Part shown: in pieces, positions 1,504 through 58,277 of the stretch | How the letters are laid out: every line of letters begins with the position of its first letter | Numbering within the stretch: position 1 is the first letter of the stretch | NCBI GenBank assembly: GCA_965206645.1 | Contig: CBDBKE010000002.1 | Location: forward strand, 320,001-384,000 | DNA length: 64,000 nt | Direction: 5' to 3' | Source: Terriglobia bacterium | GTDB lineage: Bacteria > Acidobacteriota > Terriglobia > JAJPHL01 > JAPKYU01 | Position numbers and translations under genes: made by a program | Notes under the pieces: generated by a model | The model's input: the letters and a program-made list of their open reading frames with translations, nothing else | What the model was told of the DNA's origin: nothing | Databases searched by the model: none

Positions 1504-3162
1504 CCCGGATTTCCTTTATGAACTATCGGCGGCAACCTTCTGAATGACTCCAACGTCAGTATTGATGCAGGTTCCAGCATCAACATTGCCTTCCGGAGGT
1601 GTACACCGAATGGGTGAGAGCCAAAAACAGGCGTTTCAACTGTCATTCAACCGGTTTCTGCGGGTCACATTTCAGGGATCGCGAATCACTTCCGACGGCG
1701 GTCTGATTGTGGTGCGCGAGTTGGACGAACGTTTGGGGTTCGGCGAACTTATCGAACAGCACTTGATCGACTCTCGGGGGAAGAACACCCGGTTGCCCCT
1801 CGCTGACTTGCTGCGGCAGTCCATCTACAGCCGCTTGGCAGGATACGAAGACGTCAACGACGCCGAGCGGCTTTCCCAAGATCCGACGTTCCGGCTGATC
1901 GGTTCGGAGAAGATCTGGGAACGTGGCGCAGCCCTGACTTCCCGGTTACAGTCGTTCGAGACAGAACTGCTGACGCAAGACGAGAACCTTGCTGGTTTGG
2001 CAGCGATCAACCGGGATTTGATCGCCAGGGCGGAAGCTATGGATGCGCCGCGCCGGGTGGTGCTGGACATGGACAGCACCGAGATCCCGGTCTACGGCGA
2101 ACAGGAGCAGAGCGCCTACAACGGGCATTTCGAGTCGAGTTGCTATCACCCGTTGTTGCTGTTCAGTCGCGAGGGTGACTGTCTGGCGGCCAAGCTGCGA
2201 CCCGGCAACGTGCACAGCGCCGAGGATTGGGAAGAACTTCTCCTGCCAGAGATCGAACGGCAGCAGAAGCTGGGCAAGGAAGTGGTGTTTCGCGCCGACG
2301 CCGCCTTCGCCAAGCCGGAGATCTACGACGCACTGGAGGAGCGGGACGTGAAGTATGCGATTCGCGTCCCGGCCAACGACAGTCTGGAGAGGGACATCGC
2401 GGAGTTGTTGACGCGGTCAGTGGGGCGACCGAGCCACAAGCCGGTGGTCTGGTACAAGAGCTTTCTCTACCAGGCAGCCAGTTGGAAAAAGGCGCGGCGG
2501 GTGGTGGCGAAGGTGGAGTTCCACTTTGGCGAACTGTTCCCTCGCGTGGAGTTCATCGTCACCAATCTGGAGACCGACAGCCGGGCGGTGGTCCGGTTCT
2601 ACAACAAGCGGGGCACCGCAGAGCAATGGATCAAGGAAGGCAAGCAGGCGGTAAAGATGACCCGGCTGAGTTGCCATCGGTTTCGGTCGAACGAGGTGCG
2701 CCTATGGCTGAGCCTGATCGCCTACAACTTGGGAAACCTGTGGCGGCGGCTGGTGCTACCGAAGAGGATCAACAACTGGTCGCTGACGAGTTTGCAGCAG
2801 CGGCTGGTGAAAACGGGAGGACGGCTGGTGAAACATGCGCGATATTACTGGCTTTTGCTGGCCGAAGGGCACTTGAGCCGGAGGCTGTTCAGCAGCATGC
2901 TGCGAACAATCTCGGCACTGCCGCTGCCAGACGGCTAGCGAACCGGGAGAGAGGGTAATTTTAGGTGCTCAGAAGTGGTCGGGCCGGATAAGTGTCAGCG
3001 GCGAGGCAGGCTGGGCAGGCGAAACCCGCACAGCGACTCCGAAGAACAGCCAAAATGTGCCGCACTACCACCTCAAAGAGGCCCGGGCGATTTGCGATTG
3101 ACACGACAGGGTAAGAGGCATAGGTTTTCGGGTGAAGGGGAAGCTCAAAATGGAAATTCCGG
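1504..3162 (+). mobile_element. IS1380-family insertion sequence, copy 1 (type A, 1659 bp)
   Basis: Ends CCCGGATTTCC...GGAAATTCCGG; 5-bp TSD CTAAG at 1499-1503 and 3163-3167; single DDE transposase. Confidence 0.92.
1610..2938 (+). CDS. IS1380-family transposase
   Basis: TSDGGL, GYEDVND, LDMDST, FRADAAF and FYNKRGTAEQWIKEGK motifs. The ATG at 1610 follows a GGAGG RBS; the ORF track starts at 1544. Confidence 0.92.
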   Translation: MGESQKQAFQLSFNRFLRVTFQGSRITSDGGLIVVRELDERLGFGELIEQHLIDSRGKNTRLPLADLLRQSIYSRLAGYEDVNDAERLSQDPTFRLIGSEKIWERGAALTSRLQSFETELLTQDENLAGLAAINRDLIARAEAMDAPRRVVLDMDSTEIPVYGEQEQSAYNGHFESSCYHPLLLFSREGDCLAAKLRPGNVHSAEDWEELLLPEIERQQKLGKEVVFRADAAFAKPEIYDALEERDVKYAIRVPANDSLERDIAELLTRSVGRPSHKPVVWYKSFLYQAASWKKARRVVAKVEFHFGELFPRVEFIVTNLETDSRAVVRFYNKRGTAEQWIKEGKQAVKMTRLSCHRFRSNEVRLWLSLIAYNLGNLWRRLVLPKRINNWSLTSLQQRLVKTGGRLVKHARYYWLLLAEGHLSRRLFSSMLRTISALPLPDG

Positions 3163-9695: not shown

Positions 9696-9766
9696 GTGCG
9701 CCGAGCCCGCAAGGGGCTGTCACACACCAGCGGCAGAAAGTTAGTACCGCGATCGGCTAATTCCTT

Positions 9767-11611
9767 TCAGTCTTTCTTACGGATCTGGAGGCCTAGCTCG
9801 CGGAGCTGCGCTTCGCTGATCGGAGTGGGCGCGTCCACCATCAGATCCACCGCGCGCGCCGTTTTCGGGAAAGCAATCACCTCGCGGATCGAGGTCTCGC
9901 CTGCCAATAGCATCACCACGCGATCCAGCCCCAGCGCCATGCCACCGTGAGGCGGCGTCCCGTACTCGAGCGCTTCCAGAAAAAACCCGAACCGAGCGCG
10001 CGCTTCCTCTTCGCTGAAGCCCAAGGCGCGAAACACTTGCAATTGCACATCTCGGCGGTGAATTCGGATCGAGCCAGAGCCCACCTCAGTCCCATTCAGC
10101 ACCAAGTCATAGGCGCGGGAGCGCACTGCGCCTGGAGCGCTTTCCAACCTGCCCAGGTCTTCCTCGTGGGGCGAGGTAAAGGGGTGATGCGCTGCCACCC
10201 AGCGCCGGTCCTGCTCGCTCCATTCAAACATGGGGAAGTCGGTGACCCACAGGAAACGGAAGTCGAGGGGCTTCAGCAGCCGGTGGCGTTCGTTGTACTT
10301 CTGTCCCAGGTGCAGGCGCAGGGCGCCTGCGGCGTTGAAAATCGGCGTGTCGTGCGGAGTCACCGCCGGACCCGCCGGAGGAATCGGCTCACCGCGCGCC
10401 TCCGGGCCCAGCGGTGCAGCCATGATGGGGATCAGGTCCCCGACCTCAGCGGCCACGGCGCCGGCAACGCGGCGCGCCGTTTCCGGCAAGCTCCGGGCCA
10501 GCGAGCCCTCCAGCCCTTCGCCTGACAGGCGAAGGTCAGCAAAGCCGCGTGCGTTCCGCTCAGCGATGAACTGGTCAATCTCCTCCCGCTCCTTTCGCGA
10601 CAGGCCGGCGCATTGAGGCACGCGGAAAGCCACCAGCGGCAATTCCGGGTCAAAGCGCAGCTTGGCGGTCTCCTCCGGGGCGAACAGTTGGTTGACGCGC
10701 ACGAGCGGCGGCAGGCGCAGATCGGGCTTGTCGCTCCCGTAGAGGCGGATGGCCTCGTCGTAGGTCAGGCGCGGGAACGGCCTGGGCGCTTCCACTCCGG
10801 CCAGCGCGGCCAGACCGAGCATCAGCGGCTCAACCAGCTCGAAGAGCCGATCCTGCTGGGCAAAGGCCATCTCGATGTCCAGTTGGGTGAACTCGGGCTG
10901 GCGGTCGGCGCGCAGGTCCTCGTCGCGGAAGCACCGGACGATTTGGAAGTAGCGGTCAAAGCCGGCGATCATCAGAATCTGCTTGAACAACTGGGGCGAC
11001 TGCGGCAGCGCGTAGAACGAACCGGGCTGGATGCGGCTGGGTACCAGGTAATCGCGCGCTCCTTCGGGAGTCGAGCGGGTCAGGAACGGAGTTTCGATTT
11101 CGAAAAAGCCCTGCTCGGTCATGTACCGGCGAATCTCAAAGCAGATGCGGTGGCGCAACGCGAGGTTCGCTTGCATGCCCGGCCGCCGCAGGTCGAGAAA
11201 GCGGTAGCGCAGCCGGGTGTCCTCCTGAACGGTGGTGTTGTCTTCGATGGGGAAAGGCGGCGTGCGGGCATCATTCAGCACGAAGAGCTGCGCGGCAACC
11301 AGTTCAACGGCGCCGGTGGCCAGTTCCGGGTTGACGGTTTTCGGGTCGCGCTCGACCACCTGCCCGCGCACTCCCACGACAAACTCCCGGCCCAGCCTGC
11401 TAGCGCGCTCGTGGACCTGGGGAAGAAGATCCCGGTTGAAAACGACCTGGGTGACGCCGGCGCGGTCGCGCAAGTCAATGAAGATGAGGCTGCCCAGGTC
11501 GCGCTGTCGCGCCACCCAGCCCGTCAGCACCGCAGTCTGCCCGGCGTGTTCTGAGCGCAGCTCGCCGCACATGTGGGTGCGGCACAGGTCGCCCAGGAAG
11601 TCGAGTTTCAT
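9767..11611 (-). CDS. aspS: Aspartate--tRNA ligase, probably discriminating type
   Basis: [46 protein letters not shown] and [12 protein letters not shown] motifs. RDLG and DPK occupy the positions where non-discriminating enzymes usually have His and Gly. Confidence 0.97.
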
Positions 11612-12996: not shown

Positions 12997-13521
12997 CTAC
13001 TTCCTGCCGCTGTGTTCTGCCAGATAGGTCGCGGCATGCTCAACGTAGTTCGATGCGTGGCGGCGAATCACAGTGAGGTCTTCCGGGCCCAACTGACGCT
13101 TGAACCTGGCCGGGGTGCCCAGGAAAAGGCTGTTGGGGGGCACGACGGTGCCTTCCGTCACCACGGCGCCGGCGCCGACGATCGAGCCCGAGCCAACCTG
13201 CGCCCCGTTCAACACGATGGCGCCCATCGCAATCAGGCAATCGGATTCGATCCTACAGCCATGCAGGGTGACGCCGTGGCCGACGGTGACCCGGTCGCCT
13301 ACGAGCAGCGGGTGGAGGTCCCTCATCACGTGCAACACCGAGTTATCCTGGAGGTTGGTTTCGGCGCCGATGCGGATGTAGTTCACGTCGCCCCGAACCA
13401 CCGTGCCCATCCAGACGCTGGACCGCTCGCCGATCTCCACGTCGCCGATCACCTGGGCGCTTTCGTCAATGTAGGCATTGTGGGCGATGCGCGGCAGCGC
13501 GCCGCGGAAGCTGCGGACCAT
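12997..13521 (-). CDS. Gamma carbonic anhydrase family (YrdA/PaaY-like) hexapeptide protein
   Basis: IGDVEIG, RGDVN, NLQD, VLH and TVGHGVTLHGC motifs. Confidence 0.92.
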   Translation of the reverse strand: MVRSFRGALPRIAHNAYIDESAQVIGDVEIGERSSVWMGTVVRGDVNYIRIGAETNLQDNSVLHVMRDLHPLLVGDRVTVGHGVTLHGCRIESDCLIAMGAIVLNGAQVGSGSIVGAGAVVTEGTVVPPNSLFLGTPARFKRQLGPEDLTVIRRHASNYVEHAATYLAEHSGRK

Positions 13522-13664
13522 CGATCTCCTCGCTGGTGAAATTCGCCGAGAACAGGATAAGCGAGAAACCTAGCACAGCGAGCAGAGGCAGGCAAGCCGC
13601 ACCGGACCGCGGTAGTGGGTCATTTTCCGGGAAGCCGACCATTCGCCCAACTGAAACCGGGATT

Positions 13665-13692
13665 GATAAACGCTAGCCCGTTAGTAGAGACC
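13665..13692 (-). repeat. dif-like 11-6-11 site A: GGTCTCTACTA ACGGGC TAGCGTTTATC
   Basis: One of four near-identical imperfect palindromes. The repeat is directly seen; a recombination role is inferred. Confidence 0.6.
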
Positions 13693-13916
13693 TACCCTGC
13701 ATTTGCTGGTGACAAGAGGGTTTGCACCAGCAACCCGAGGCGCGCATAGCTCGGCTAAAGTGCTGTGGCTTGACACGGAGGATGAGCGACCGGTCAAATT
13801 GAGGTTTCCAGAGACCGGAACTGCTGGGGATTCAGTGACCCGTCTCTTGAATGATGCTAAAGCCCGCCTGCTCTGCCACCGGGTGAGTAGCCCCCATCAC
13901 GGATGGAGGACGCGGA

Positions 13917-13987
13917 TGCCAACCTATACCGTATGCGTGAACGACAACTTCCATTACATGGATGAGAGGGAGCACGAAAATCGTTGA
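13917..13987 (+). pseudogene. Short N-terminal gene remnant (MPTYTVCVNDNFHYMDE)
   Basis: Strong GGAGGA RBS and a protein-like start, but no continuing frame. Confidence 0.3.
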
Positions 13988-14114
13988 GTGGGAACCGGTA
14001 CTTTGGCTATCCTCTCGTTACGAGTAAGACCAGAACGAAAAGCTCGGTTGAGCGAAGCGGGCTAGCAAGGCTCAGTGCCTTAGGAGAAATTACAGACGAA
14101 AGGAACAAGGGAGC

Positions 14115-14890
14115 ATGTACATCCGGATCATCTTGGCAATGGCAACATTATGCTGCGTAGTGCCTGTAGCCACGTTAGGACGGCAGCTTGATGTGGCCGG
14201 ATCGGCCGATCACGAGGCAATCACGCGCTACAAAGGTTCTGTGTTGCTCTTCTACGACGAGCAGGAGTATGACGCTTACCTGCTTCCACTCGGAAACTGG
14301 ACTCGGGCCAAACGAGGTTTTGAGTCTTCGCGGACGGTCGAGGGTGAAGTCACTCGGCGATCTTATGTCGCCCCCGAAGGCCCCTCGGTTCTGGCGGTTT
14401 ACCGCAACTTCGAAAGGGCGGTTCAGAATAGCGGCCTGAAAATCCTCTATGGCTGCCTCGAGCAGAACTGCGACCGCAGGTTTGCAAGGAGCTTCATTGG
14501 GATGATGCCATACCGGCTCATCCCGAAGGATCACTATCACAACTTTCACGGACTTTCTCAGATGGCGTATATCGCCGGTGAAGGAGAGCACAAGGGGCGA
14601 CCTATATGGGTTTCCATTGGCATAGGCACGGTGACGGTAGCAGGATCCCGTTACAGGGATACAGACAATCGACGTCGCAGATTTGCCACCAACCGGGTTG
14701 TGTTCTTCGTTGATACGGTCGAGGGCGCCGAGATGGCGACGGACATGGTAACCATCTCCCTTGACAAACTGGCTCAGGCGCTAGCGAACGAGGGCAAGAT
14801 GGTTTTAGATGGCATTTTCTTTGATACCGGCAAGGCCGTTGTGAAACCGAAATCCGACGAGGCCCTCGCCATTATCGCGGATTACCTGAA
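14115..14890 (+). pseudogene. 5' part of a DUF4892-like/OmpA-family protein; remainder at 56156-56337 and 54639-54716 (minus strand)
   Basis: Signal peptide, DHEAITRYKGS, GIFFDTGKA; breaks at ADYL|IS. It rejoins in frame through TSD CTGAA to KGNSAMTFFVTGHTD. Confidence 0.88.
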
Positions 14891-16548
14891 CCCGGATTTC
14901 CGTTTTGAAACTCCAAAGCTAACCTTATACTGACCTCTGACGCCAATATTTATGCCGGTTCCAGCGTCAATACAGCTTCCGGAGGTAGAAACCGAGTGGG
15001 TGAGAGGCAAAATCAGCCCTTTCAGTTCTCTTTCAATGCTGCATTGAAGGTCGATTTCCAGGGGTCGCGGGTTACTTCCGACGGCGGCCTGATCCTCGTG
15101 CGCGAATCAGACGAACATTTGGGATTCGGAGAACTCATCAAACAGCACTTGGCCGATCCTCGGAGAAAGAACACACGGTTGCCCTTTGCTGACCTCCTGC
15201 GCCAGTCCGTGTACAGCCGCTTGGCGGGTTACGAAGATATGAATGACGCGGAACGGCTCTCTCAAGATCCGACGTTCCGGCTGATCGGTTCAGAAAAGAT
15301 CTGGGAGCGAGGAGCCGCGTTGACTTCCCGGCTGCAATCGTTCGAGACAGAACTACTGACGCAAGATGAGAACCTGGCTGGTTTGGCAGCGATCAACCGG
15401 GATTTAATCGCCAGGGCGGAAGCTATGGATTCCCCGCAACGGGTGGTGCTGGACATGGACTCGACCGAGATTCCGGTCTACGGCCAGCAGGAGCAGAGTG
15501 CCTACAACGGGCATTTCGAGTCGAGCTGCTATCACCCGTTGTTGCTGTTCAATCGCGAGGGTGACTGTCTGGCGGCCAAGCTGCGACCGGGCAACGTGCA
15601 CAGCGCCGAGGACTGGAAAGAACTTCTCCTGCCGGAGATCGAGCGGCAGCAGCAGCTGGGCAAGGAAGTGGTGTTTCGTGCCGACGCGGCCTTTGCCAAG
15701 CCGGAGATTTACGAGGCTCTGGAGGAGCGGGAGGTAAAGTACGCCATCCGCATCCCGGCTAACGACAGCCTACAGCGGGACATTGAGGAGTTGCTGACTC
15801 GGCCGGTGGGGAGACCCAGCAAGAAGCCGTTGGTGGAGTTCAAGGGCTTTCTATACCAAGCGGCCAGTTGGAAGACAGCCCGCAGGGTGGTGGCCAAGGT
15901 GGAGCATCATCCAGGGGAGCTGTTCCCGCGAGTAGGGTTTATCGTTACGAACTTGACTCTGCCAAGTCGGGCGGTGATGCGGTTTTACAACAAGCGGGGG
16001 ACAGCGGAGCAGTGGATCAAAGAAGGAAAGCAAGCAGTGAAGATGACGCGGCTCAGTTGTCACCGGTTCCGGTCGAACGAGGTCCGGCTGTGGCTCACCA
16101 TCATTGCCTATAATCTCGGCAACCTGTGGCGGCGACTGGTGCTGCCACAGAGAATCGGGAACTGGTCCCTGACGAGCTTGCAACAGCGGTTGGTGAAAAC
16201 GGGAGGACGGCTGGTGAAACATGCGCGATATTACTGGCTTTTGCTGGCCGAAGGGCACTTGAGCCGGAGGCTGTTCAGCAGCATGCTGCGAACGATCTCG
16301 GCACTGCCGCTGCCAGACGGCTAGCGAACCGGGAGAGAGGGTAATTTTAGGTGCTCAGAAGTGGTCGGGCCGGATAAGTGTCAGCGGCGCGGCAGGCTGG
16401 GCAGGCGAACCCCGCACAGCGACTCCGAAGAACAGCCAAAATGTGCCGCACTACCACCTCAAAGAGGCCAGAGCTGTTTGCGGTTGACACGACAGGGTAC
16501 GAGGCATAGCTTTTCGGGTGAAGAGGAAGCTCGAAATGGAAATTCCGG
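14891..16548 (+). mobile_element. IS1380-family copy 2 (type B, 1658 bp); transposase 14996-16324
   Basis: Same terminal motifs as copy 1. Its flanks CTGAA and ATGAG do not match each other but match sites near copy 4. Confidence 0.92.
16484..16512 (+). promoter_or_regulatory. Putative outward-facing sigma70 promoter inside the IS1380 right end
   Basis: TTGACA-17 bp-TAGCTT (TAGGTT in type A copies), 36 bp inside the IRR. Confidence 0.45.
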
Positions 16549-21297: not shown

Positions 21298-21424
21298 TCG
21301 GGCCAGCCATATACCTCAATCTCAAAGGGCAAAGCCAATACAGCTTTACAATTCCATTGGCCAATCCCATTGGACAGAAGGTCCTTGACAGCGGTGGAAG
21401 CCCCAAGGGAGAATCATTATCACG

Positions 21425-21520
21425 GTGCAGTTCGGTCGGAGAGAGTTAAGGCTTTGTTGCCCTACGCCGGGATGTTGTTGCCCGTGCGGGCGGCTCTCCG
21501 GCGGACGGTTCGTCTCGTAG
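21425..21520 (+). CDS. Putative cysteine-rich leader peptide MQFGRRELRLCCPTPGCCCPCGRLSGGRFVS
   Basis: GTG...TAG, 31 aa with 6 Cys codons in an 11-codon span. It lies between TTGACA (21385-21390) and a terminator upstream of the sulfite reductase. Confidence 0.7.
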   Translation: MQFGRRELRLCCPTPGCCCPCGRLSGGRFVS

Positions 21521-21547
21521 CTTGTAGCCTAAGTTATCATCCAGCTG

Positions 21548-21590
21548 ACCCGCCGTCGAGAGATCGAGCCTCTCGGGCGGGTTTTTCGTT
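21548..21590 (+). terminator. Intrinsic terminator/attenuator hairpin in the sulfite reductase leader
   Basis: ACCCGCC-gt-CGAGAG loop CTCTCG-GGCGGGT followed by TTTTCGTT, 43 bp before the ATG. Confidence 0.8.
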
Positions 21591-21632
21591 CCGCGCGATT
21601 GATCTGAGCGGAAGCAGACGGAGTACGGAATT

Positions 21633-23894
21633 ATGAAAGTCTCCAGCGCACTCTGGAAAGAACGGCTTGTCGGGAAGCTGCCGGATAGCTTGGCCCGCGA
21701 AGTGGACATCTTCGAAACGGAGATAGATTTGCGAAGACAGGGCAAAGTGGAAGAAAAACTCTTTGCGGAAACTCGGCTTCGCAGAGGTGTCTACGGACAA
21801 CGCTATGACAACGGCCAGCGGCACGATGGGCAGAAAGTCCAGGATCTCGCCTATCCTTCCAGACAACTGACCAAGGGGCCAAATGCGGTGTGGGATGCTC
21901 CCGGCATGCAGCGTATCAAGGTCCCTTACGGAGGACTCAATGCGGAGCAACTGGAGACCCTAGCGGATTTGACCGAGGAATATTCCGACGGCATTGCGCA
22001 CGTCACGACCCGGCAGGACTTCCAACTGCACTATGTGCAGATTGACGATACGCCCGCTTTGATGCGGCGGCTGGCCGCGGTCAAGATCACCACCCGCGAG
22101 GCTTGCGGCAACTCGGTGCGCAATGTGACCGCTTGCCCCTACGCCGGTGTTTGCCCGGACGAGGCTTTCGACGTCACCCCGTATGCCCGCGCCCTTTCCC
22201 GATTCTTGCTGGGACATCCCGACGCGCAGAACTTCGGCAGGAAGTTCAAGCCGGCCTTCAGCGGCTGCCGGGACCATGGCTGTGGCCTCACCAACATGCA
22301 CGATCTGGGTTTGATCGCAGTCAAACGGAACGGTGGCGGAAAAGAAGAACGAGGTTTTGAAATGTACGTCGGCGGTGGATTGGGGGCCGTTCCCTATCAG
22401 GCGAAGCTGTTTGACTCCTTCCTGCGGCCGGAGGAGCTTCTGCCGACAGCTCAGGCAATTGCCAGGGTCTTCGCGCGGCAGGGGGAGAAGAAAAACCGCA
22501 ATCGGGCCCGTATCAAATTCCTGGTCCATGACCTGGGGATTGAGAAATTTAAGGAGCTGGTGCTTGAGGAGCGCAAGAATCTTCCTCCAGATGTCCGATG
22601 GAACGATTCCCTGGAGGGCGCCGAGCAGGAGTCGGAAGGAGCTCTCCGACCCGGAGGGAAGCTGCCGGCCGGAGGCTCGGAAGACTTCCGGCGCTGGGTG
22701 GAAACCAATACTCGCCGGCAGAAGCAGGAGGGATATGTCGTGGCCACGGTGGCGCTCCCCCTGGGAGATCTCACCTCGCTACAACTTCGTGCTTTGGCCG
22801 ACATCGTCCGCCGGTTCACAAAAGAAACTATCCGCACCACTGTGGAACAAAATTTCGTTCTCCGCTGGATCAGTCAAAGCGATTTGCCCGAACTCTATCG
22901 AGCATTAAAGGAGGCCGGCATGGCAGAGCCGGGCGCGGGCACGCTCGTGGACATTGTTGCCTGCCCAGGCACAGATACCTGCAAACTCGGGATTTCCTCC
23001 TCGCGCGGGCTGGCCGCCGAGTTGCGGAAACGACTGGCCGAGAAATGCTTTCAACTGGATGAGGCCGTTCGAAGCCTGCACATCAAAGTCAGCGGCTGCT
23101 TTAACAGCTGCGGGCAGCACCACGTCGCCGACCTGGGCTTTTACGGCGTCAGCCGCAAGCTGGCTGGCCATGCCGTACCGCACTTTCAGGTTGTTCTCGG
23201 CGGTGAGTGGACCCACAATGCGGGCTCCTATGGCCTGGCCATTGTAGCGATTCCCTCCAGAAGAATTCCGGAAGTGGTCACCCGCATTACCGAACGCTAT
23301 GTCTCCGGCCGAAAGAACGGAGAAGGCTTTCAGGACTTCATTAAGCGAATCGGCAAGGTGGAATTGAAGAAAATGCTGGAAGATCTTGCCCAGCCACCCG
23401 ACCCCGCGACCGATCGCTCCTTTTTCCAGGACTGGGGTGACCCCCGGGAGTACAGCCTGGGCGACCTCGGCGTCGGCGAATGCGCCGGGGAGGTGGTGAG
23501 CTCGGTCGAGTTCGGCCTAGCGGCCGCGGAACGCGAAGTCTTCGAGGCGCAGGTGGCGTTGGAAAATGGCGAAACAGAGAAGGCCAGAGAGACGGCGTAT
23601 CAATCCATGCTCCATGCTGCCAAGGCGCTCGTCCGAATCGAGCACCTGGATATTTCCGACGACTCGGATCAGATTGTCCAGCAATTCCGCACCCGTTTCT
23701 ACGATACGCAGAAGTTCTTCGATCCTTTTGCCGGCGGTAAGTTCGCCCATTACCTGTTTGCCGCTCACCGAAAGGCCGAGGACCCATACACACCGGAGGC
23801 CACCCACCACTTGATCGAGGAGGCGCAACTGTTCATCGAGGCCTCGCACAGTTGCTACAGCCGCATGGCCACCCCTGCAGGCGCCAGGGCGTAG
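21633..23894 (+). CDS. Siroheme/4Fe-4S nitrite/sulfite reductase (probably assimilatory sulfite reductase) with C-terminal HEPN-like extension
   Basis: GVYGQR, HVTTRQDFQLH, CGNSVRN, RKFK, CPGTDTC and SGCFNSCGQH motifs. The Cys leader favours sulfite. Confidence 0.88.
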   Translation: MKVSSALWKERLVGKLPDSLAREVDIFETEIDLRRQGKVEEKLFAETRLRRGVYGQRYDNGQRHDGQKVQDLAYPSRQLTKGPNAVWDAPGMQRIKVPYGGLNAEQLETLADLTEEYSDGIAHVTTRQDFQLHYVQIDDTPALMRRLAAVKITTREACGNSVRNVTACPYAGVCPDEAFDVTPYARALSRFLLGHPDAQNFGRKFKPAFSGCRDHGCGLTNMHDLGLIAVKRNGGGKEERGFEMYVGGGLGAVPYQAKLFDSFLRPEELLPTAQAIARVFARQGEKKNRNRARIKFLVHDLGIEKFKELVLEERKNLPPDVRWNDSLEGAEQESEGALRPGGKLPAGGSEDFRRWVETNTRRQKQEGYVVATVALPLGDLTSLQLRALADIVRRFTKETIRTTVEQNFVLRWISQSDLPELYRALKEAGMAEPGAGTLVDIVACPGTDTCKLGISSSRGLAAELRKRLAEKCFQLDEAVRSLHIKVSGCFNSCGQHHVADLGFYGVSRKLAGHAVPHFQVVLGGEWTHNAGSYGLAIVAIPSRRIPEVVTRITERYVSGRKNGEGFQDFIKRIGKVELKKMLEDLAQPPDPATDRSFFQDWGDPREYSLGDLGVGECAGEVVSSVEFGLAAAEREVFEAQVALENGETEKARETAYQSMLHAAKALVRIEHLDISDDSDQIVQQFRTRFYDTQKFFDPFAGGKFAHYLFAAHRKAEDPYTPEATHHLIEEAQLFIEASHSCYSRMATPAGARA

Positions 23895-23932: not shown

Positions 23933-24508
23933 ATGGAACTCCAGCACGTCAACGTAAAGCTCTACGTGGAGAATCCAAAGGGAACCGACCTAGAGGTGTT
24001 GATTCCAGTCTTTCACAACTGGATCCAGGATCAGGTGTGTGAGGAATTGTTGATCGATGTGGCCGATTACCGGCACGTTCATCAAGGTCCGGGAGTGGTC
24101 CTGATCGGCCATGAAGCCAATTACAGTCTGGACAATGCAGATAACCGGCTGGGCGTTCGCTACAACCGCAAGGCTCCCTTAGCAGGCGGCAATCAAGACC
24201 GCTTCGTGCAAGCCACCCGGGCGGCGCTGACCGCCTACAGACGTCTGGATTCCGATCCGCGGATTCAGGGAAAATTTCTCCTGAACGGTCAGGAGCTGGA
24301 GCTATTTGTGAACGACCGACTGCTGGCTCCGAACCTTGAGAAAACCTACCAGGCTGCGAAGCCGGAACTGGAAGGCTTTTTCGGGAAACTCTTTGCGGGA
24401 AGTGGTTACTCGGTCGCGCACAATGGCGACCCTCGGAATCTGTTCTCGGTCGAAGTCCAGGCTTCCAGGCCCTTCACAGCAAGCGAATTGCTCAAGAACC
24501 TATCCTGA
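23933..24508 (+). CDS. Hypothetical protein, likely co-transcribed with the reductase
   Basis: GAGG RBS before MELQHV; protein-like (LLIDVADYRHV...GPGVVLIGHEA); 38 bp after the reductase stop. Confidence 0.7.
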   Translation: MELQHVNVKLYVENPKGTDLEVLIPVFHNWIQDQVCEELLIDVADYRHVHQGPGVVLIGHEANYSLDNADNRLGVRYNRKAPLAGGNQDRFVQATRAALTAYRRLDSDPRIQGKFLLNGQELELFVNDRLLAPNLEKTYQAAKPELEGFFGKLFAGSGYSVAHNGDPRNLFSVEVQASRPFTASELLKNLS

Positions 24509-29813: not shown

Positions 29814-29900
29814 GCGGAAGTGGCGGAACGGCAGACGCAGCGGACTCAAAATCCGCCGCCCCTCGCGGGCATGAGGGTTCAAATCCCTCCTTCCGCACCA
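29814..29900 (+). tRNA. tRNA-Leu (CAA)
   Basis: GCGGAAG/CTTCCGC acceptor stem + ACCA; anticodon arm GCGGA-CTCAAAA-TCCGC; long variable arm; GGTTCAAATCC T arm. Confidence 0.97.
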
Positions 29901-29925
29901 TCTTTCTCTCTTTCTTTTCATTGAA

Positions 29926-31047
29926 TTACTGCCAGTTTTTCTCGTGTCCCCCAGATATCCCCGAGTACACGGCCTGCAACAGAGCATTGATGCGTTCCTG
30001 CCGAGCCTGTGACCACTTGGCGTAATGCTTCCGCGCAACGTGCTCACCGATGCCAAGCACATCGGCAACATCCGCCATCGAGCCACCGCGTGCCAAAATG
30101 TCGGTGGCAAGAGTATGCCTGAAACGATGGGCGTGGGCGCCTTCTACCTTGGCCTTCTCGAACACAGCACCAAGTAGCCGTTCTGCAATGCCTCGGGCCG
30201 AGCTTTTCTTCCCCGACCCACTCCAGAAGAAATATCCGCTGTCCACCTGGCTACCGTTCTCGCGCATCGGGAAGGGTAGGGCATCCAGTGCGTTTTTCAG
30301 TTCCACGGGAATCGGCAACGTCACGTGACCCTTGGTTTTTTGGGTGAACAGTTGTATCTGCCAGCCGCGCCGGCCATCTGGTCTAATGCGGTCCTTGTCC
30401 AGCGTGACTGCATACATAATCCTCAGTCCGGTAAACCTGAGCAAAAGCACCAAAGTCCGCGCACGAAGCCGCTCATAGGAATTCTGGCCGATGGCGTCAC
30501 AGCTCGCTAGCATCTCTGCCGCCTGTTGCGGCGTGTACGGGACAACCTCTTTTGGTTGCGCCTTCGGTGTTTTGATTTTTCTCGCGTAGTTTTCTTTCGC
30601 CCACCCGCGCTCAAAACAGAAGGAGAAGAACTGCCGAAGTGTTTGCAGCTCTTTCGCTGCCGGCATGCGTGACACCTTCCGACCGACGCGAAAGGCATCC
30701 AGTTGCTCCAACCCAAGGGCGCTGACTGTCTCAATGCCGTTCCGCTCGCAGAAGTCACGGAGCTGACGCATCAGGCGCTTGTACTTGAGCAGGCTTGGTT
30801 CCTGCACGCTCAGTTGTGATTCCCAAGCAGCGATAGCTTCGGCAACGAGTTTCTGGGGTTTCGCGTCAGGGTCCTCGATTTGGGCGAGCTTGCGGATAGC
30901 CCGTTGCCAATCTCTCAGCTTCAGCGAAACGCGAAACTGGCGTCCATTGCGATCGCCGTCTGCCCAAATGGGGCAGTTGCAGCCGGTGTACTTGCGGCCT
31001 TTCTTCCGGTGTGAACAATTCTTCCTGTGGCGTCGGTAGAGATTCAT
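29926..31047 (-). CDS. Tyrosine recombinase/integrase
   Basis: TGLR, TQKT, HAHRFRHT and KHYAKW motifs; AGGAGG RBS before MNLYRRH; ends 25 bp from the tRNA. Confidence 0.92.
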   Translation of the reverse strand: MNLYRRHRKNCSHRKKGRKYTGCNCPIWADGDRNGRQFRVSLKLRDWQRAIRKLAQIEDPDAKPQKLVAEAIAAWESQLSVQEPSLLKYKRLMRQLRDFCERNGIETVSALGLEQLDAFRVGRKVSRMPAAKELQTLRQFFSFCFERGWAKENYARKIKTPKAQPKEVVPYTPQQAAEMLASCDAIGQNSYERLRARTLVLLLRFTGLRIMYAVTLDKDRIRPDGRRGWQIQLFTQKTKGHVTLPIPVELKNALDALPFPMRENGSQVDSGYFFWSGSGKKSSARGIAERLLGAVFEKAKVEGAHAHRFRHTLATDILARGGSMADVADVLGIGEHVARKHYAKWSQARQERINALLQAVYSGISGGHEKNWQ

Positions 31048-31072
31048 GGTGCCTCCTGGTCGGCGCATTCTA

Positions 31073-31306
31073 CTACCGGCACCTCCGTTCGTACACTCGC
31101 TGAGCTACGGATTCTGGGATCCGTAGGGTGATGTGGTCCCGCTTGCTTCTCCGGCCTTCCTGCCCGATCTTCAGCACGCCAGGCTCGTCCCGGAAAATGT
31201 CCCGTATGGTGCGCGAGTTCAGCACCCACACCTTGGCCAGTTCTTGCGGGCTGAAATGCCGCTCAAACGCGCTTGGGAGTGTTCCGGGTTGGAGGTTGTG
31301 GTTCAA
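31073..31306 (-). CDS. Excisionase-like HTH protein
   Basis: FSPQELAKVW...RTIRDIF...LRIPES; sits directly upstream of the integrase. Confidence 0.65.
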   Translation of the reverse strand: MNHNLQPGTLPSAFERHFSPQELAKVWVLNSRTIRDIFRDEPGVLKIGQEGRRSKRDHITLRIPESVAQRVYERRCR

Positions 31307-31361
31307 AGGTCAGTCCCTACGGGCCATTCCGTTCCTCATGGCTCTTTCGTACTCGCTCCCT

Positions 31362-31853
31362 TCACGTGTTCGAGGTGTTTAATTGCTCTGATTCCGGTGG
31401 GGACGACCCAGGAGCCGTCCCCGGCCCTTCCCATTGAAAATTCGCCTCTGAACGACCCTCTCCCAAGTGATTCCAGCGATTCTGGAGGGCCGTCGCCCTC
31501 ATCCTAGCCAACTGCTCCCGTTGCTTCGGGGAGGCAGTACGACGGGGCCTCACTCCCGCCAGCTTCAGAACCGTTTTTACCTGAGCGGGGTTCAGCGGAT
31601 CGAACAGCGCCGATCCCTCTCCATCCGCGTCCTGCCAGATTTCGCACCCCACTGCTTTCCACCTCCGGCGGATGCTGTTCCACCTCCTCGGCGTCAGGTT
31701 CAAGAACATCACCCCGAGACGCTCGTCTCCGTGTTCGTACAGGTGGCCAAAGCGCCCATGCACGACCGGATCCCCTCACTCGTCGTGGCGCGTTTTGAGG
31801 TTGTGGTGCTTCGCGAACTCGCGAATCGTCGCCTCTTCTTGCCCACTTCTCAC
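31362..31853 (-). pseudogene. Element hypothetical protein with in-frame TGA at 31776-31778
   Basis: GTG start overlaps the upstream stop (GTGA); the frame reads ...LKTRHDE*GDPVVHGRFGHLYEHG into ORF 31362-31763. Confidence 0.5.
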
Positions 31854-33055
31854 TGTCTTCTTGCACCTCTGTTAAAAGCATCCGCAGGCGTTTGGTAACT
31901 CGGCCTCACCTCCGGGATGAAGCCACCTTCCTCAAGCCGCAAGGAAAACTTTGACTCTTCGGCAAAGCGATTCTTGAGGCAGCGTAAATCCACAGCGCGC
32001 CGGTCCTGCTCGCGGCGCTCCACGCGCCAGGCCATATCGGCGTCGGCCAAAAGCTCGGACGATCCCCTGTACTCCGGCGAGTTGGGCTTGTCGCTCTTGT
32101 GCGCAATGACCAGCACGGTTCCGCCGGCGTTCACCAATTCTCGGAAGGCGGCGGTCACGCGGGCCATGTCCTCGGCGCTATTTTCGGCACCGCGAAAGAA
32201 TCTGACCAGTGAGTCAAAGATTACCAGCGGGCGATGCTTGGCGCAGAAATCGAGAAGCCGACGGTCCCATATCGACGCTGGTTTCTCCTGGAGCCACTGC
32301 CCCCAGTAGTGCAGGCCCTGCGGATTGCCCGCTTGCAAATATTTCTTGCGGCGGTTAACAACCGCCTCTGGATTCTCCCGGTTCAGCACCAGCGCTCGCG
32401 TTCTTGCTGTCCGCTTCTGCGCGAAAGCGGCTCCCTGCGAAACCCGGACTGCCAAATCTATCTGCAGCCAAGACTTGAGACTCCCGCGCGCACCAACTAC
32501 TAGCGCGAGCGACTGGCGCGGGATGAAATCTTCTACCAGGTACTCCAGCGGAACGTCGCGGACTGAATCTAGTCCTGGAACTTGCTCAAGGTCAGTGAAC
32601 GTGGCGGCGTGACTGTTCTCAGCCAGGGTATTTCCGTGGTCCCGCAGGTCATCTAGTAGGGCTTCGGAGCCTTCGCTGTCGAGGGCTCGGTTTTCGATTG
32701 CGCGGCAGGTGCGGATGATTTTCCGCAGGCGCGATTTTTCGCTGACAATCGCGGCATAGTGCTCGATGTTTACTGACCGTGGAAGACCCTCGGTCAAGCT
32801 CGGCAATAGGCTTACTAGGCGGTGGGCGTTGTCTGCAATCAGCCGTTCGGTCAGTGTCACCGGGTCGATAGGCTCGCCGTCTTCCCTCATCGCAGCCATA
32901 TGCCGCCAAAGCATCGCGTGGTCCGCAACGGTGAAATCTGCAGGCTGCAAGAACACAGTGGCCATCGCGGCGTTGTCCTGCAGCACGGCCCCGAGCACGG
33001 CGCATTCGGCATCGACGTTTACGGGCAGGCCCCTTGTTAAGATCGCGTCGCTCAT
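31850..33055 (-). CDS. DnaB N-terminal domain + RepA/AAA_25-like helicase
   Basis: LPVNVDAECAVLGAVL DnaB-N; Walker A-like GARGSLKS; VIFDSL; IAH...YRGSS. Confidence 0.8.
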   Translation of the reverse strand: MSDAILTRGLPVNVDAECAVLGAVLQDNAAMATVFLQPADFTVADHAMLWRHMAAMREDGEPIDPVTLTERLIADNAHRLVSLLPSLTEGLPRSVNIEHYAAIVSEKSRLRKIIRTCRAIENRALDSEGSEALLDDLRDHGNTLAENSHAATFTDLEQVPGLDSVRDVPLEYLVEDFIPRQSLALVVGARGSLKSWLQIDLAVRVSQGAAFAQKRTARTRALVLNRENPEAVVNRRKKYLQAGNPQGLHYWGQWLQEKPASIWDRRLLDFCAKHRPLVIFDSLVRFFRGAENSAEDMARVTAAFRELVNAGGTVLVIAHKSDKPNSPEYRGSSELLADADMAWRVERREQDRRAVDLRCLKNRFAEESKFSLRLEEGGFIPEVRPSYQTPADAFNRGARRQ

Positions 33056-33900
33056 CCCTCCCCCATCCATTTTTCCATCCGCTCTGCGGACCCAAAGACG
33101 TGCTGTAAGTCGGCATGGACCTTGGCCCGGTCATTCTGGCCCATGTGGAACGGGCTTCTCCGGATGGCGTCAACGCACCTGCACATTGCTTCGGTTGCTG
33201 CAGCCATCAGGGTAGGGCCTTTCAGGTCAGGATTCAGGTTCCGTCCAATTTCGATTGCTTCTCTTGCCCTGGCTTTGAGCATCTGCCGCCGCTTGTCAGT
33301 GAATCGGTACAAAGCTGCGTTCTTCCCCATTACCGTGAGGTAGTGTTGGTAGACCCTGCTGGTGATGTGGTGGTAAGCAGTCTCCGGGGGCGAATCCCCG
33401 AGAGCCGGCGAAGGAGCCTCCTTGGCGACTTCGCCAACGGTGTTAGTATTTCTTCTGTTTCCGTTTCCTTCTCTTTCTTGATAGGAGGAGTTGTCCTCGC
33501 GTGTCTCCCCGCGGGTGCCCTTACCGTTCTCCTCGCGCTTTTCATAGACGGGAGTGCGGTAATCCGTTGTTTTCTCAGTGTTCAGTAACCATCCGCTCCT
33601 CGCCCCCTTGCTGGCGAGGTACTTATTGATGAGAATTGGGTAACTTCCGTGGCGTCCTGGGATCGTGAACCGCTTGATGTAGCCGTCCCTTTCCAGGCTT
33701 TCTAGAACGTCGCGTGCATACCTCTCTTGATAGCCGTATCGAGCCGCCAGTCCTTTCGCGCTGGACCACACAATGCCGGTTTCGCAATCGGCTTCCAAAA
33801 TCAGGTGGGCGTAGGTGGCAAAATGCAAAGGCGGCAGTTTTCCTTGAACACAGTGATTGAGAATGCCCCGGCGCAGTTGGACGTAACCGCTCCAATTCAC
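33052..33900 (-). CDS. Putative phage-type replication initiator protein
   Basis: N-terminal GYVQLRR plus winged-HTH-like segment, charged linker, overlapping the helicase gene. Confidence 0.55.
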   Translation of the reverse strand: MNWSGYVQLRRGILNHCVQGKLPPLHFATYAHLILEADCETGIVWSSAKGLAARYGYQERYARDVLESLERDGYIKRFTIPGRHGSYPILINKYLASKGARSGWLLNTEKTTDYRTPVYEKREENGKGTRGETREDNSSYQEREGNGNRRNTNTVGEVAKEAPSPALGDSPPETAYHHITSRVYQHYLTVMGKNAALYRFTDKRRQMLKARAREAIEIGRNLNPDLKGPTLMAAATEAMCRCVDAIRRSPFHMGQNDRAKVHADLQHVFGSAERMEKWMGEG

Positions 33901-56619: not shown

Positions 56620-58277
56620 CCGGAATTTCCATTTTGAGCTTCCTCTTCACCCGAAAAGCTATGCCTCGTACCCTGTCGTGTCAACCGCAAACAGCTCTGG
56701 CCTCTTTGAGGTGGTAGTGCGGCACATTTTGGCTGTTCTTCGGAGTTGCTGTGCGGGTTTCGCCTGCCCAGCCTGCCGCGCCGCTGACACTTATCCGGCC
56801 CGACCACTTCTGAGCACCTAAAATTACCCTCTCTCCCGGTTCGCTAGCCGTCTGGCAGCGGCAGTGCCGAGATCGTTCGCAGCATGCTGCTGAACAGCCT
56901 CCGGCTCAAGTGCCCTTCGGCCAGCAAAAGCCAGTAATATCGCGCATGTTTCACCAGCCGTCCTCCCGTTTTCACCAACCGCTGTTGCAAGCTCGTCAGG
57001 GACCAGTTCCCGATTCTCTGTGGCAGCACCAGTCGCCGCCACAGGTTGCCGAGATTATAGGCAATGATGGTGAGCCACAGCCGGACCTCGTTCGACCGGA
57101 ACCGGTGACAACTGAGCCGCGTCATCTTCACTGCTTGCTCTCCTTCTTTGATCCACTGCTCCGCTGTCCCCCGCTTGTTGTAAAACCGCATCACCGCCCG
57201 ACTTGGCAGAGTCAAGTTCGTAACGATAAACCCTACTCGCGGGAACAGCTCCCCTGGATGATGCTCCACCTTGGCCACCACCCTGCGGGCTGTCTTCCAA
57301 CTGGCCGCTTGGTATAGAAAGCCCTTGAACTCCACCAACGGCTTCTTGCTGGGTCTCCCCACCGGCCGAGTCAGCAACTCCTCAATGTCCCGCTGTAGGC
57401 TGTCGTTAGCCGGGATGCGGATGGCGTACTTTACCTCCCGCTCCTCCAGAGCCTCGTAAATCTCCGGCTTGGCAAAGGCCGCGTCGGCACGAAACACCAC
57501 TTCCTTGCCCAGCTGCTGCTGCCGCTCGATCTCCGGCAGGAGAAGTTCTTTCCAGTCCTCGGCGCTGTGCACGTTGCCCGGTCGCAGCTTGGCCGCCAGA
57601 CAGTCACCCTCGCGATTGAACAGCAACAACGGGTGATAGCAGCTCGACTCGAAATGCCCGTTGTAGGCACTCTGCTCCTGCTGGCCGTAGACCGGAATCT
57701 CGGTCGAGTCCATGTCCAGCACCACCCGTTGCGGGGAATCCATAGCTTCCGCCCTGGCGATTAAATCCCGGTTGATCGCTGCCAAACCAGCCAGGTTCTC
57801 ATCTTGCGTCAGTAGTTCTGTCTCGAACGATTGCAGCCGGGAAGTCAACGCGGCTCCTCGCTCCCAGATCTTTTCTGAACCGATCAGCCGGAACGTCGGA
57901 TCTTGAGAGAGCCGTTCCGCGTCATTCATATCTTCGTAACCCGCCAAGCGGCTGTACACGGACTGGCGCAGGAGGTCAGCAAAGGGCAACCGTGTGTTCT
58001 TTCTCCGAGGATCGGCCAAGTGCTGTTTGATGAGTTCTCCGAATCCCAAATGTTCGTCTGATTCGCGCACGAGGATCAGGCCGCCGTCGGAAGTAACCCG
58101 CGACCCCTGGAAATCGACCTTCAATGCAGCATTGAAAGAGAACTGAAAGGGCTGATTTTGCCTCTCACCCACTCGGTTTCTACCTCCGGAAGCTGTATTG
58201 ACGCTGGAACCGGCATAAATATTGGCGTCGGAGGTCAGTATAAGGTTAGCTTTGGAGTTTTAAAACGGAAATCCGGG
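56620..58277 (-). mobile_element. IS1380-family copy 4 (type B); transposase 56844-58172
   Basis: Near-identical inverted copy of copy 2; its left flank (element sense) ATGAG equals the right flank of copy 2. Confidence 0.92.

Follow-up and report, generated by a model that had tools for sequence, protein, structure and literature searches.

In a 2014 article in Comput Biol Chem, Lyubetsky et al. are said to have predicted cysteine-dependent attenuation, either Rho-dependent or classic, at Cys-tract leaders of sulfur genes, in Actinobacteria only. According to the accessible text of Canestrari et al. (10.1101/834739), control by leaderless poly-Cys ORFs is proven in mycobacteria, being translational at the one locus that was dissected, and the mechanism at the other mycobacterial poly-Cys loci is left open there. 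Seliverstov et al. 2005, in the portion available (PMC1262725), described actinobacterial cys leaders without terminator hairpins. Also, Brewer et al. 2021 predicted, in the text open to us (PMC8632094), an element named uORFC-8-2 upstream of cysS in Rhodobacterales, which combines tandem Cys codons with a U-tailed intrinsic terminator. As for Acidobacteria, their attenuators were noted as almost wholly unannotated in the available part of PMC2965389.

Here we analyze a leader that precedes a siroheme reductase gene in a 64,000-nucleotide stretch of DNA from a Terriglobia bacterium (hereafter the window), together with homologous loci, designated by L numbers. The element is real, conserved and very probably functional, and we consider with good confidence that it is a classical ribosome-stalling transcription attenuator sensing Cys-tRNA. 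The parts of such an attenuator are present, and so are their conservation, covariation and spacing.

Layout of the locus

The sequence-only reading of this DNA had named a TTGACA/GAGAAT promoter, a 31-codon ORF, a U-tailed hairpin and the reductase ATG, all of which lie at the positions listed in Table 1. This promoter is the top promoter-like site of the region and predicts a transcription start at ~21421-21422, the leader GTG being ~4-5 nt downstream of it. Among 940 short ORF frames (15-45 aa) in the window, the leader ORF is the sole one with at least six Cys and a CCC run. For the window leader, Pfam gave no match and Rfam 15 gave none at E<=5.

Table 1. Features of the leader and the genes downstream of it (window coordinates)
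Feature	Position	Strand	Remark
Promoter, sigma-70-type: -35 TTGACA (21385), 18-nt spacer, -10 GAGAAT (21409-21414)	21385..21414	+	10/12 match
Leader ORF, 31 codons, GTG start, 6 Cys codons	21425..21520	+	near-leaderless, without Shine-Dalgarno
Control codons: CC, CCC and last C (6 Cys codons)	21455..21487	+	Cys run in 38/38 curated leaders
Segment 1 candidates, 21438-21443 and 21466-21473	21437..21473	+	may pair with segment 2 if no ribosome covers them
Segment 2, antiterminator strand	21494..21508	+	13 nt past the CCC run; cognate-specific across leaders
Intrinsic terminator: segment 3 21548-21563, loop, segment 4 21570-21582, U-tract 21582-21586	21548..21586	+	covariation
Reductase Shine-Dalgarno GGAG	21620..21623	+	outside the terminator hairpin
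Siroheme/[4Fe-4S] reductase of SirA/NirA (sulfite-reductase) type, ATG 21633	21633..23894	+	Pfam, PDB match
Conserved 191-aa protein, function unassigned	23933..24508	+	probably co-transcribed with the reductase

Elsewhere in the window, a tRNA-Leu (29814-29900) adjoins a phage-type integrase (29926-31068, minus strand) and replication-like genes, and the whole region (29814-33900) is probably an integrated element. The window also holds two 442-aa DDE transposases of one family (14996-16324, plus strand; 56844-58172, minus strand) and further ORF pairs of equal length (1544-2938/34403-35797 and 47594-49576/49647-51629).

The reductase and its partner gene

The 753-aa reductase matches Pfam NIR_SIR and NIR_SIR_ferr above cut-off, and its best PDB match is NirA of M. 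tuberculosis (1zj8), a sulfite reductase according to the title of Schnell 2005. In alignments its RKFK corresponds to RKYK of 1zj8 and to RKWN of plant nitrite reductase, and it shares EACG with 1zj8; the KxK, the N-terminal Tyr motif and EACG are present in 81/81 homologues. We take KxK, the two active-site lysines (KxN in plant nitrite reductase), and the Tyr and Cys cross-link residues as marks of a preference for sulfite, presuming likewise which Tyr is the cross-linked one. Superfamily membership can mislead, since NirA of P. aeruginosa, from the same superfamily, is a nitrite reductase according to the accessible text of PMC8092218. Orthologues of the reductase are found in operons with cysH, sat and siroheme genes (L045, L048, L050, L052, L063 and L064). 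As the Terriglobia loci have no other cys genes flanking the reductase, with the 191-aa protein as its only partner, and as the reductase reaches no NCBIfam equivalog cut-off, sulfite is given here as the presumed substrate. A C-terminal extension of ~140 aa (23475-23891, plus strand) shows a weak HEPN-like match, below cut-off (E 5e-4). The 191-aa protein, to which no Pfam or NCBIfam family corresponds, follows the reductase in 60/81 loci from several phyla.

Distribution of the leader among reductase homologues

A scan of GTDB gave at least 584 matches, the best 80 of which (reductases 62-97% identical) were kept and make up, with the window, the set of 81 loci; a 97% identical reductase (GTDB record CBDCVK010000008.1) identifies the host as a Terriglobia acidobacterium. 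A detector that looks for an ORF of 8-45 codons whose Cys codons form a cluster of three or more, CC among them, and then a U-tailed hairpin, fired upstream of 37/81 reductases and of 2/1015 other genes in the same DNA (Fisher p 9e-44, related genomes not being independent observations). The conservation of a Cys-rich short ORF plus terminator upstream of orthologues, which the sequence-only reading had proposed as a check, is therefore borne out, and in the well-supported Terriglobia clade that includes the window the leader is present in 33/37 members (FastTree tree, midpoint-rooted). When the same detector was set to other residues, it fired at 16 (Leu), 11 (Val), 10 (Arg) and 8 (Ser) of the 81 loci, and at 0-2 for the rest, versus 37 for Cys.

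Outside this clade, the leader occurs in 5/5 Anaerolineales of the set and once in Vicinamibacterales. In the latter (L064, 7317-7530, plus strand) a promoter, a Cys-run leader and a strong terminator stand at the head of a DUF2061-cysH-cysG-sir operon. The Anaerolineales leaders (L043, L044, L045, L050 and L054) lie 100-380 nt upstream of the reductase and have 2:3 and 3:4 helices of their own. All five are accompanied by a second terminator-like hairpin with a strong U-tract; a hairpin cascade acting on it was considered and is unsupported, as folding did not open this second hairpin. The covariance model of the Terriglobia leaders did not find the Anaerolineales and Vicinamibacterales ones, which share the design and have dissimilar sequences. 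Separate origins in the three lineages are likely, to judge from these dissimilar leader sequences and the scattered placement on the tree. The remaining rows of the set, among them Bryobacteraceae, Versatilivoraceae, Planctomycetota and Latescibacterota, showed no leader directly upstream of the reductase. One of them may use another type of control: in L062, the place just before the reductase is occupied by a gene for an Rrf2-family regulator (1614-2045, plus strand) instead of a leader, which suggests protein-based control in that lineage.

One of the two detector matches at other genes is a second leader of the same family in one genome (L024, ~14045-14206, minus strand). It precedes a rhodanese/sulfurtransferase gene (13150-14001, minus strand) that is convergent with the reductase operon, and a covariance model built without it recovers it with 45.5 bits. 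The remaining match looks like chance.

Some copies depart from the pattern. In L011 (~9700-9925) the leader ORF runs through the terminator. In L028, L032 and L040 the last 130 nt before the reductase contain no Cys run, and L032 retains a terminator-like hairpin and an ORF starting with MGK; these three are possibly decayed leaders. Other Cys leader candidates were discarded, one as the off-frame end of a long gene (L076, ~20828) and others for having no matching terminator or not being a Cys run (L029 ~11338, L050 ~4132, L047, L058 and L035). Separately, the titles of L027 (Saccharimonadales) and L004 (Methylomirabilota) clash with their reductases, which fall inside the Terriglobia clade, pointing to mislabelling, misbinning or transfer.

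The leader ORF

The Cys frame was picked by its Cys run, the start codon playing no part in the choice, and a start codon downstream of the predicted -10 is available in this frame in 38/38 leaders, versus 6/38 for the Val frame and 9/38 for the Leu frame. Start-codon availability thus rules out reading the TGT repeat as Val or Leu. TGT accounts for 135/193 Cys codons in leaders (70%) and for 632/2372 in neighbouring ORFs (27%). For most of the 38 leaders, the sequence immediately before the leader contains a promoter-like site. Relative to the predicted transcription start, the first in-frame start, itself also a prediction, is found at -2 to +2 in 10/38, at +5 to +9 in 17/38 and further away in 11/38 leaders. 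Most leaders would then begin within ~9 nt of the transcription start, which is too close for a Shine-Dalgarno sequence. The leader peptides are 21-39 aa long and hold 3-10 Cys. Downstream of the Cys run the peptide is unconserved, and even its frame differs (L024 versus L009/L030) although the RNA motif persists. In many leaders a further Cys codon falls inside segment 2, where a stall would hide that segment.

A comparison with L001, the 97% identical relative, bears on the possibility that the family is real and the copy of this strain is weakened or decaying, its start codon lost and its terminator mostly constitutive. The predicted +1 carries ATG in L001 and ACG in the window, the window leader is among those scored lowest by the family model (34.8 bits), and the apparent decay in L028, L032 and L040, together with the read-through in L011, also speaks for this possibility. 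Nevertheless, an in-frame GTG remains in the window, 17/38 leaders begin 5-9 nt from the predicted transcription start, the three differences between both ORFs are all at synonymous third positions, and both helices are intact, for which we regard decay as unlikely.

The cause of a stall deserves a similar consideration. The same switch might respond to something different from a shortage of Cys-tRNA, such as nascent-peptide arrest by oxidation, metal or sulfide acting on the Cys run, or the loss of a sulfur-dependent tRNA modification. Arrest peptides are usually conserved around the arrest site, however, and the residues around the Cys run are unconserved; moreover, the regulated genes make cysteine precursors, and mycobacterial poly-Cys uORFs respond to cysteine (10.1101/834739, accessible text). 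A thiol run in a short peptide and the strong TGT bias, which could reflect decoding effects, speak for such a cause, which we nevertheless consider very unlikely, and Cys-tRNA is retained as the likely signal.

Terminator and antiterminator

The window hairpin (21548-21582) has a folding energy of -23.3 kcal/mol and is followed by UUUUUCGUU. Taken by itself, the window offers modest RNA evidence: its terminator is unexceptional for its composition (folding z -1.35), the folding of the whole leader is not significant (z -1.49), and the antiterminator duplex is no stronger than those of shuffles of the G-rich segment (z -0.6). Since the window duplex falls within its shuffles, the evidence beyond chance for the antiterminator rests on the relatives.

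Two pairings had been proposed by the sequence-only reading. The complementarity of CGGCGG (21499-21504) and CCGCCG (21550-21555) is real, and so is that of GGAGAG (21438-21443) and CTCTCC (21494-21499), but the second pairing is preferred only while the terminator arm is still missing (P 0.73); with the arm present, a more local 1:2 hairpin (21466-21502, P 0.98) displaces it. CTCTC also pairs with GAGAG of the terminator 5' arm, a pairing overlooked in that reading, which lengthens the window antiterminator to ~11-13 bp in two alternative registers.

Covariation was assessed on an alignment of 32 Terriglobia leaders (MAFFT, A2), a set from which L001 and the five Anaerolineales are left out. 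Pairing in the terminator amounts to 87%, 8/11 pairs show two-sided changes, and 0/500 shuffles match this result. In fixed columns, the antiterminator is 77% paired, which is not above shuffles (149/500) though above slid controls (26-63%). Because bulges put the fixed columns out of register and the row of the window is misaligned there, an alignment-free test of cognate pairing was used, with row and column composition effects removed. Segment 2, taken as the 33 nt after the Cys run, favours its own terminator arm in 26/32, 18/20 and 14/14 leaders as divergence rises, with a permutation p of ~1e-5 for the diverged Terriglobia leaders; no cognate pairing signal emerges from five control segments of these loci (p 0.14-0.95). 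The best duplex within 200 nt upstream begins 3-25 nt past the Cys run in 25/32 leaders. Singly, the antiterminator duplex reaches p<=0.05 in 21/38 leaders, and clear compensated cases are L010, L011, L019, L022, L026, L049 and L056.

This cognate 2:3 pairing would have no role if the Cys-rich peptide itself were the product, that is, a metal-binding or redox micro-protein or the precursor of a modified peptide, made from a short terminated transcript while the reductase is expressed by leaky read-through or from other promoter. Many of the peptides do share a CxCCC and a recurrent APxCGG tail, as such a product could. The tail, however, is explained by the RNA antiterminator, and it appears in other frames or is replaced in L009, L010, L022, L024, L026, L030, L033, L037 and L049. 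With peptide lengths varying between 21 and 39 aa, one ORF (L011) reading through and no NCBIfam match for any of the eight leader peptides scanned, a peptide product seems very unlikely to us.

The spacing of the elements also discriminates. The Cys run is 59-70 nt away from the terminator in 33/33 leaders, and the distance from the U-tract to the reductase ATG varies between 20 and 148 nt across 33 leaders. Four terminators (L024, L043, L044 and L054) were set by hand, as the automatic call chose another hairpin or failed. In a translational attenuator of the Ms5788A type, the Cys-run ORF would govern whether the Shine-Dalgarno of the reductase is accessible, the hairpin being incidental; the near-leaderless poly-Cys ORF indeed resembles the mycobacterial ones (10.1101/834739, accessible text), and by eye CTCTCC of the window could pair with GGAG at 21620-21623. 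Yet the hairpin with its U-tract covaries and is found in all curated leaders, the Shine-Dalgarno lies outside it, and the distance that is fixed is the one to the terminator, not the one to the ATG. We therefore see this alternative as very unlikely and continue with transcription attenuation.

Folding with a ribosome footprint of 27 nt, a static model with an assumed footprint whose outcome is partly given by construction, yielded a median of 12 expected 2:3 pairs with the ribosome stalled on Cys, 0.9 five codons on and 0.0 at the stop codon (n=37, L011 being left out as its ORF reads through the terminator). The stalled state exceeds the state five codons past by at least three pairs in 37/37 leaders, and the stop state in 34/37. 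In the window, ~15 2:3 pairs are expected while the ribosome sits on the Cys codons, a number that drops to 0 once it is within the last six codons. In 4/5 Anaerolineales the 2:3 helix is still open when the ribosome has reached the stop codon. A looser first metric that counted any upstream pairing separated stalled and stop states in just 19/37 leaders and was replaced by the segment-specific one because unrelated pairings confounded it. The 1:2 pairing, present in the window, varies among leaders (median 1.7 expected pairs, with at least 6 in about half of them). Even with a stalled ribosome, the equilibrium favours the terminator in nearly all leaders (mean P(3:4) 0.86); in the window, forcing 2:3 gives -33.9 versus -39.1 kcal/mol, and the terminator is favoured once segment 4 is made. 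Consequently, the switch would have to act kinetically. Kinetic action of the antiterminator is usual for attenuators.

Proposed mechanism

The leaders bring together the features by which an attenuator is recognized, namely clustered codons for the end product, an intrinsic terminator, an antiterminator that shares the 5' arm with it and overlaps the 3' portion of the leader, and a spacing compatible with a ribosome. The attenuator proposed by the sequence-only reading is thus supported by conservation, by the covarying terminator and by the cognate-specific antiterminator, its response to cysteine being a prediction. We infer leader translation, stalling, kinetic control and a cysteine response as follows. 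Transcription would begin a few bases ahead of the leader ORF, whose near-leaderless start would then receive a ribosome. Upon scarcity of Cys-tRNA the ribosome would stall on the Cys run and leave segment 2 free, which would capture the emerging terminator 5' arm, so that the terminator would come too late and the reductase and its partner gene would be transcribed. When cysteine is plentiful, the ribosome would cover segment 2, or segment 1 would take segment 2 behind the ribosome, and the terminator would form, ending transcription ~47-51 nt upstream of the reductase ATG. The extra Cys codon within segment 2 of many leaders, the read-through in L011 and the second hairpin of the five Anaerolineales are not accounted for by this scheme and speak against it.

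Comparison with known systems

Our literature search, which reached few subscription papers, found no report of this element for Acidobacteriota, Chloroflexota or a sulfite reductase, and the supplement of PMC11109978 may list such motifs. The element is without mention in the accessible parts of PMC13236596, PMC5314783, PMC2965389, PMC11951088 and PMC11109978, and a supplement of PMC8632094 contains no match for it. The sequence-only reading knew of no description of a terminator-based cysteine attenuator in a probable acidobacterium; none was found for Acidobacteriota in the literature searched, but a Cys uORF of the terminator type had already been predicted for cysS in Rhodobacterales (PMC8632094, accessible text). 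The Terriglobia sulfite-reductase leader family, carried by many soil Acidobacteria, appears to be undescribed, its type of mechanism being classical. The searchable literature contains no experimental demonstration of a cysteine attenuator of the terminator type: the poly-Cys uORF with proof acts on translation, and the terminator type is the cysS prediction.

The new leaders share with uORFC-8-2 the tandem-Cys uORF, the U-tailed terminator and the proposed logic. As described in the available text of PMC8632094, uORFC-8-2 is alphaproteobacterial, targets a tRNA synthetase, has two Cys at codons 14-15 with UGC dominant, and no antiterminator helix is named for it. Here, in contrast, 3-10 Cys with UGU dominant (70%) precede a reductase or a rhodanese, and the antiterminator is supported by covariation. 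This comparison is one of described features, Rfam having given no match.

With Ms5788A and the mycobacterial 'Cys ribulon', the likeness is in a poly-Cys sORF before sulfur genes, leaderless there and mostly near-leaderless by prediction here, including a thiosulfate sulfurtransferase, and in the occurrence of several loci per genome, as L024 has two; the difference is that Ms5788A works by sequestration of the Shine-Dalgarno and was shown not to act by termination (10.1101/834739, in the part accessible). The leaders studied here have instead a covarying terminator, and the Shine-Dalgarno is outside of it at a variable distance.

Regarding the biological meaning of these data, the family is a fully specified and testable case, with its promoter, control codons, 2:3 and 3:4 helices and natural compensatory variants, and it is attached to a biosynthetic gene of a phylum that ranks among the most abundant in soil. 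It also supports annotating a poorly classified family of 750-aa reductases as sulfite reductases, and the Cys leader may serve as a marker for finding other sulfur genes. Furthermore, it raises the question of whether near-leaderless initiation is coupled tightly enough to drive transcription attenuation.

Finally, trpL, hisL, pheL, leuL and the ilvB uORF work in the way proposed here, with control codons for the end product, competing 2:3 and 3:4 helices and the position of the ribosome as the switch (10.1101/834739, PMC13236596 and PMC5314783, accessible text of each). The leaders described here differ from these classical attenuators in that cysteine would be sensed and a sulfite reductase controlled, in starting mostly within ~9 nt of the predicted transcription start without a Shine-Dalgarno, and in their Acidobacteriota and Chloroflexota hosts. 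We give about even chances to a broader picture, in which Terriglobia would have a cysteine 'ribulon' acting by transcription termination on sulfite reductase, rhodanese and probably more sulfur genes through near-leaderless poly-Cys ORFs with covarying terminator and antiterminator, the design having three or more separate origins within this reductase family (Terriglobia, Anaerolineales and Vicinamibacterales), with other lineages lacking the leader and one having an Rrf2 gene instead. If true, cysteine would thereby take its so far vacant place in the trp/his/leu/thr/phe series of attenuators for a biosynthetic pathway.
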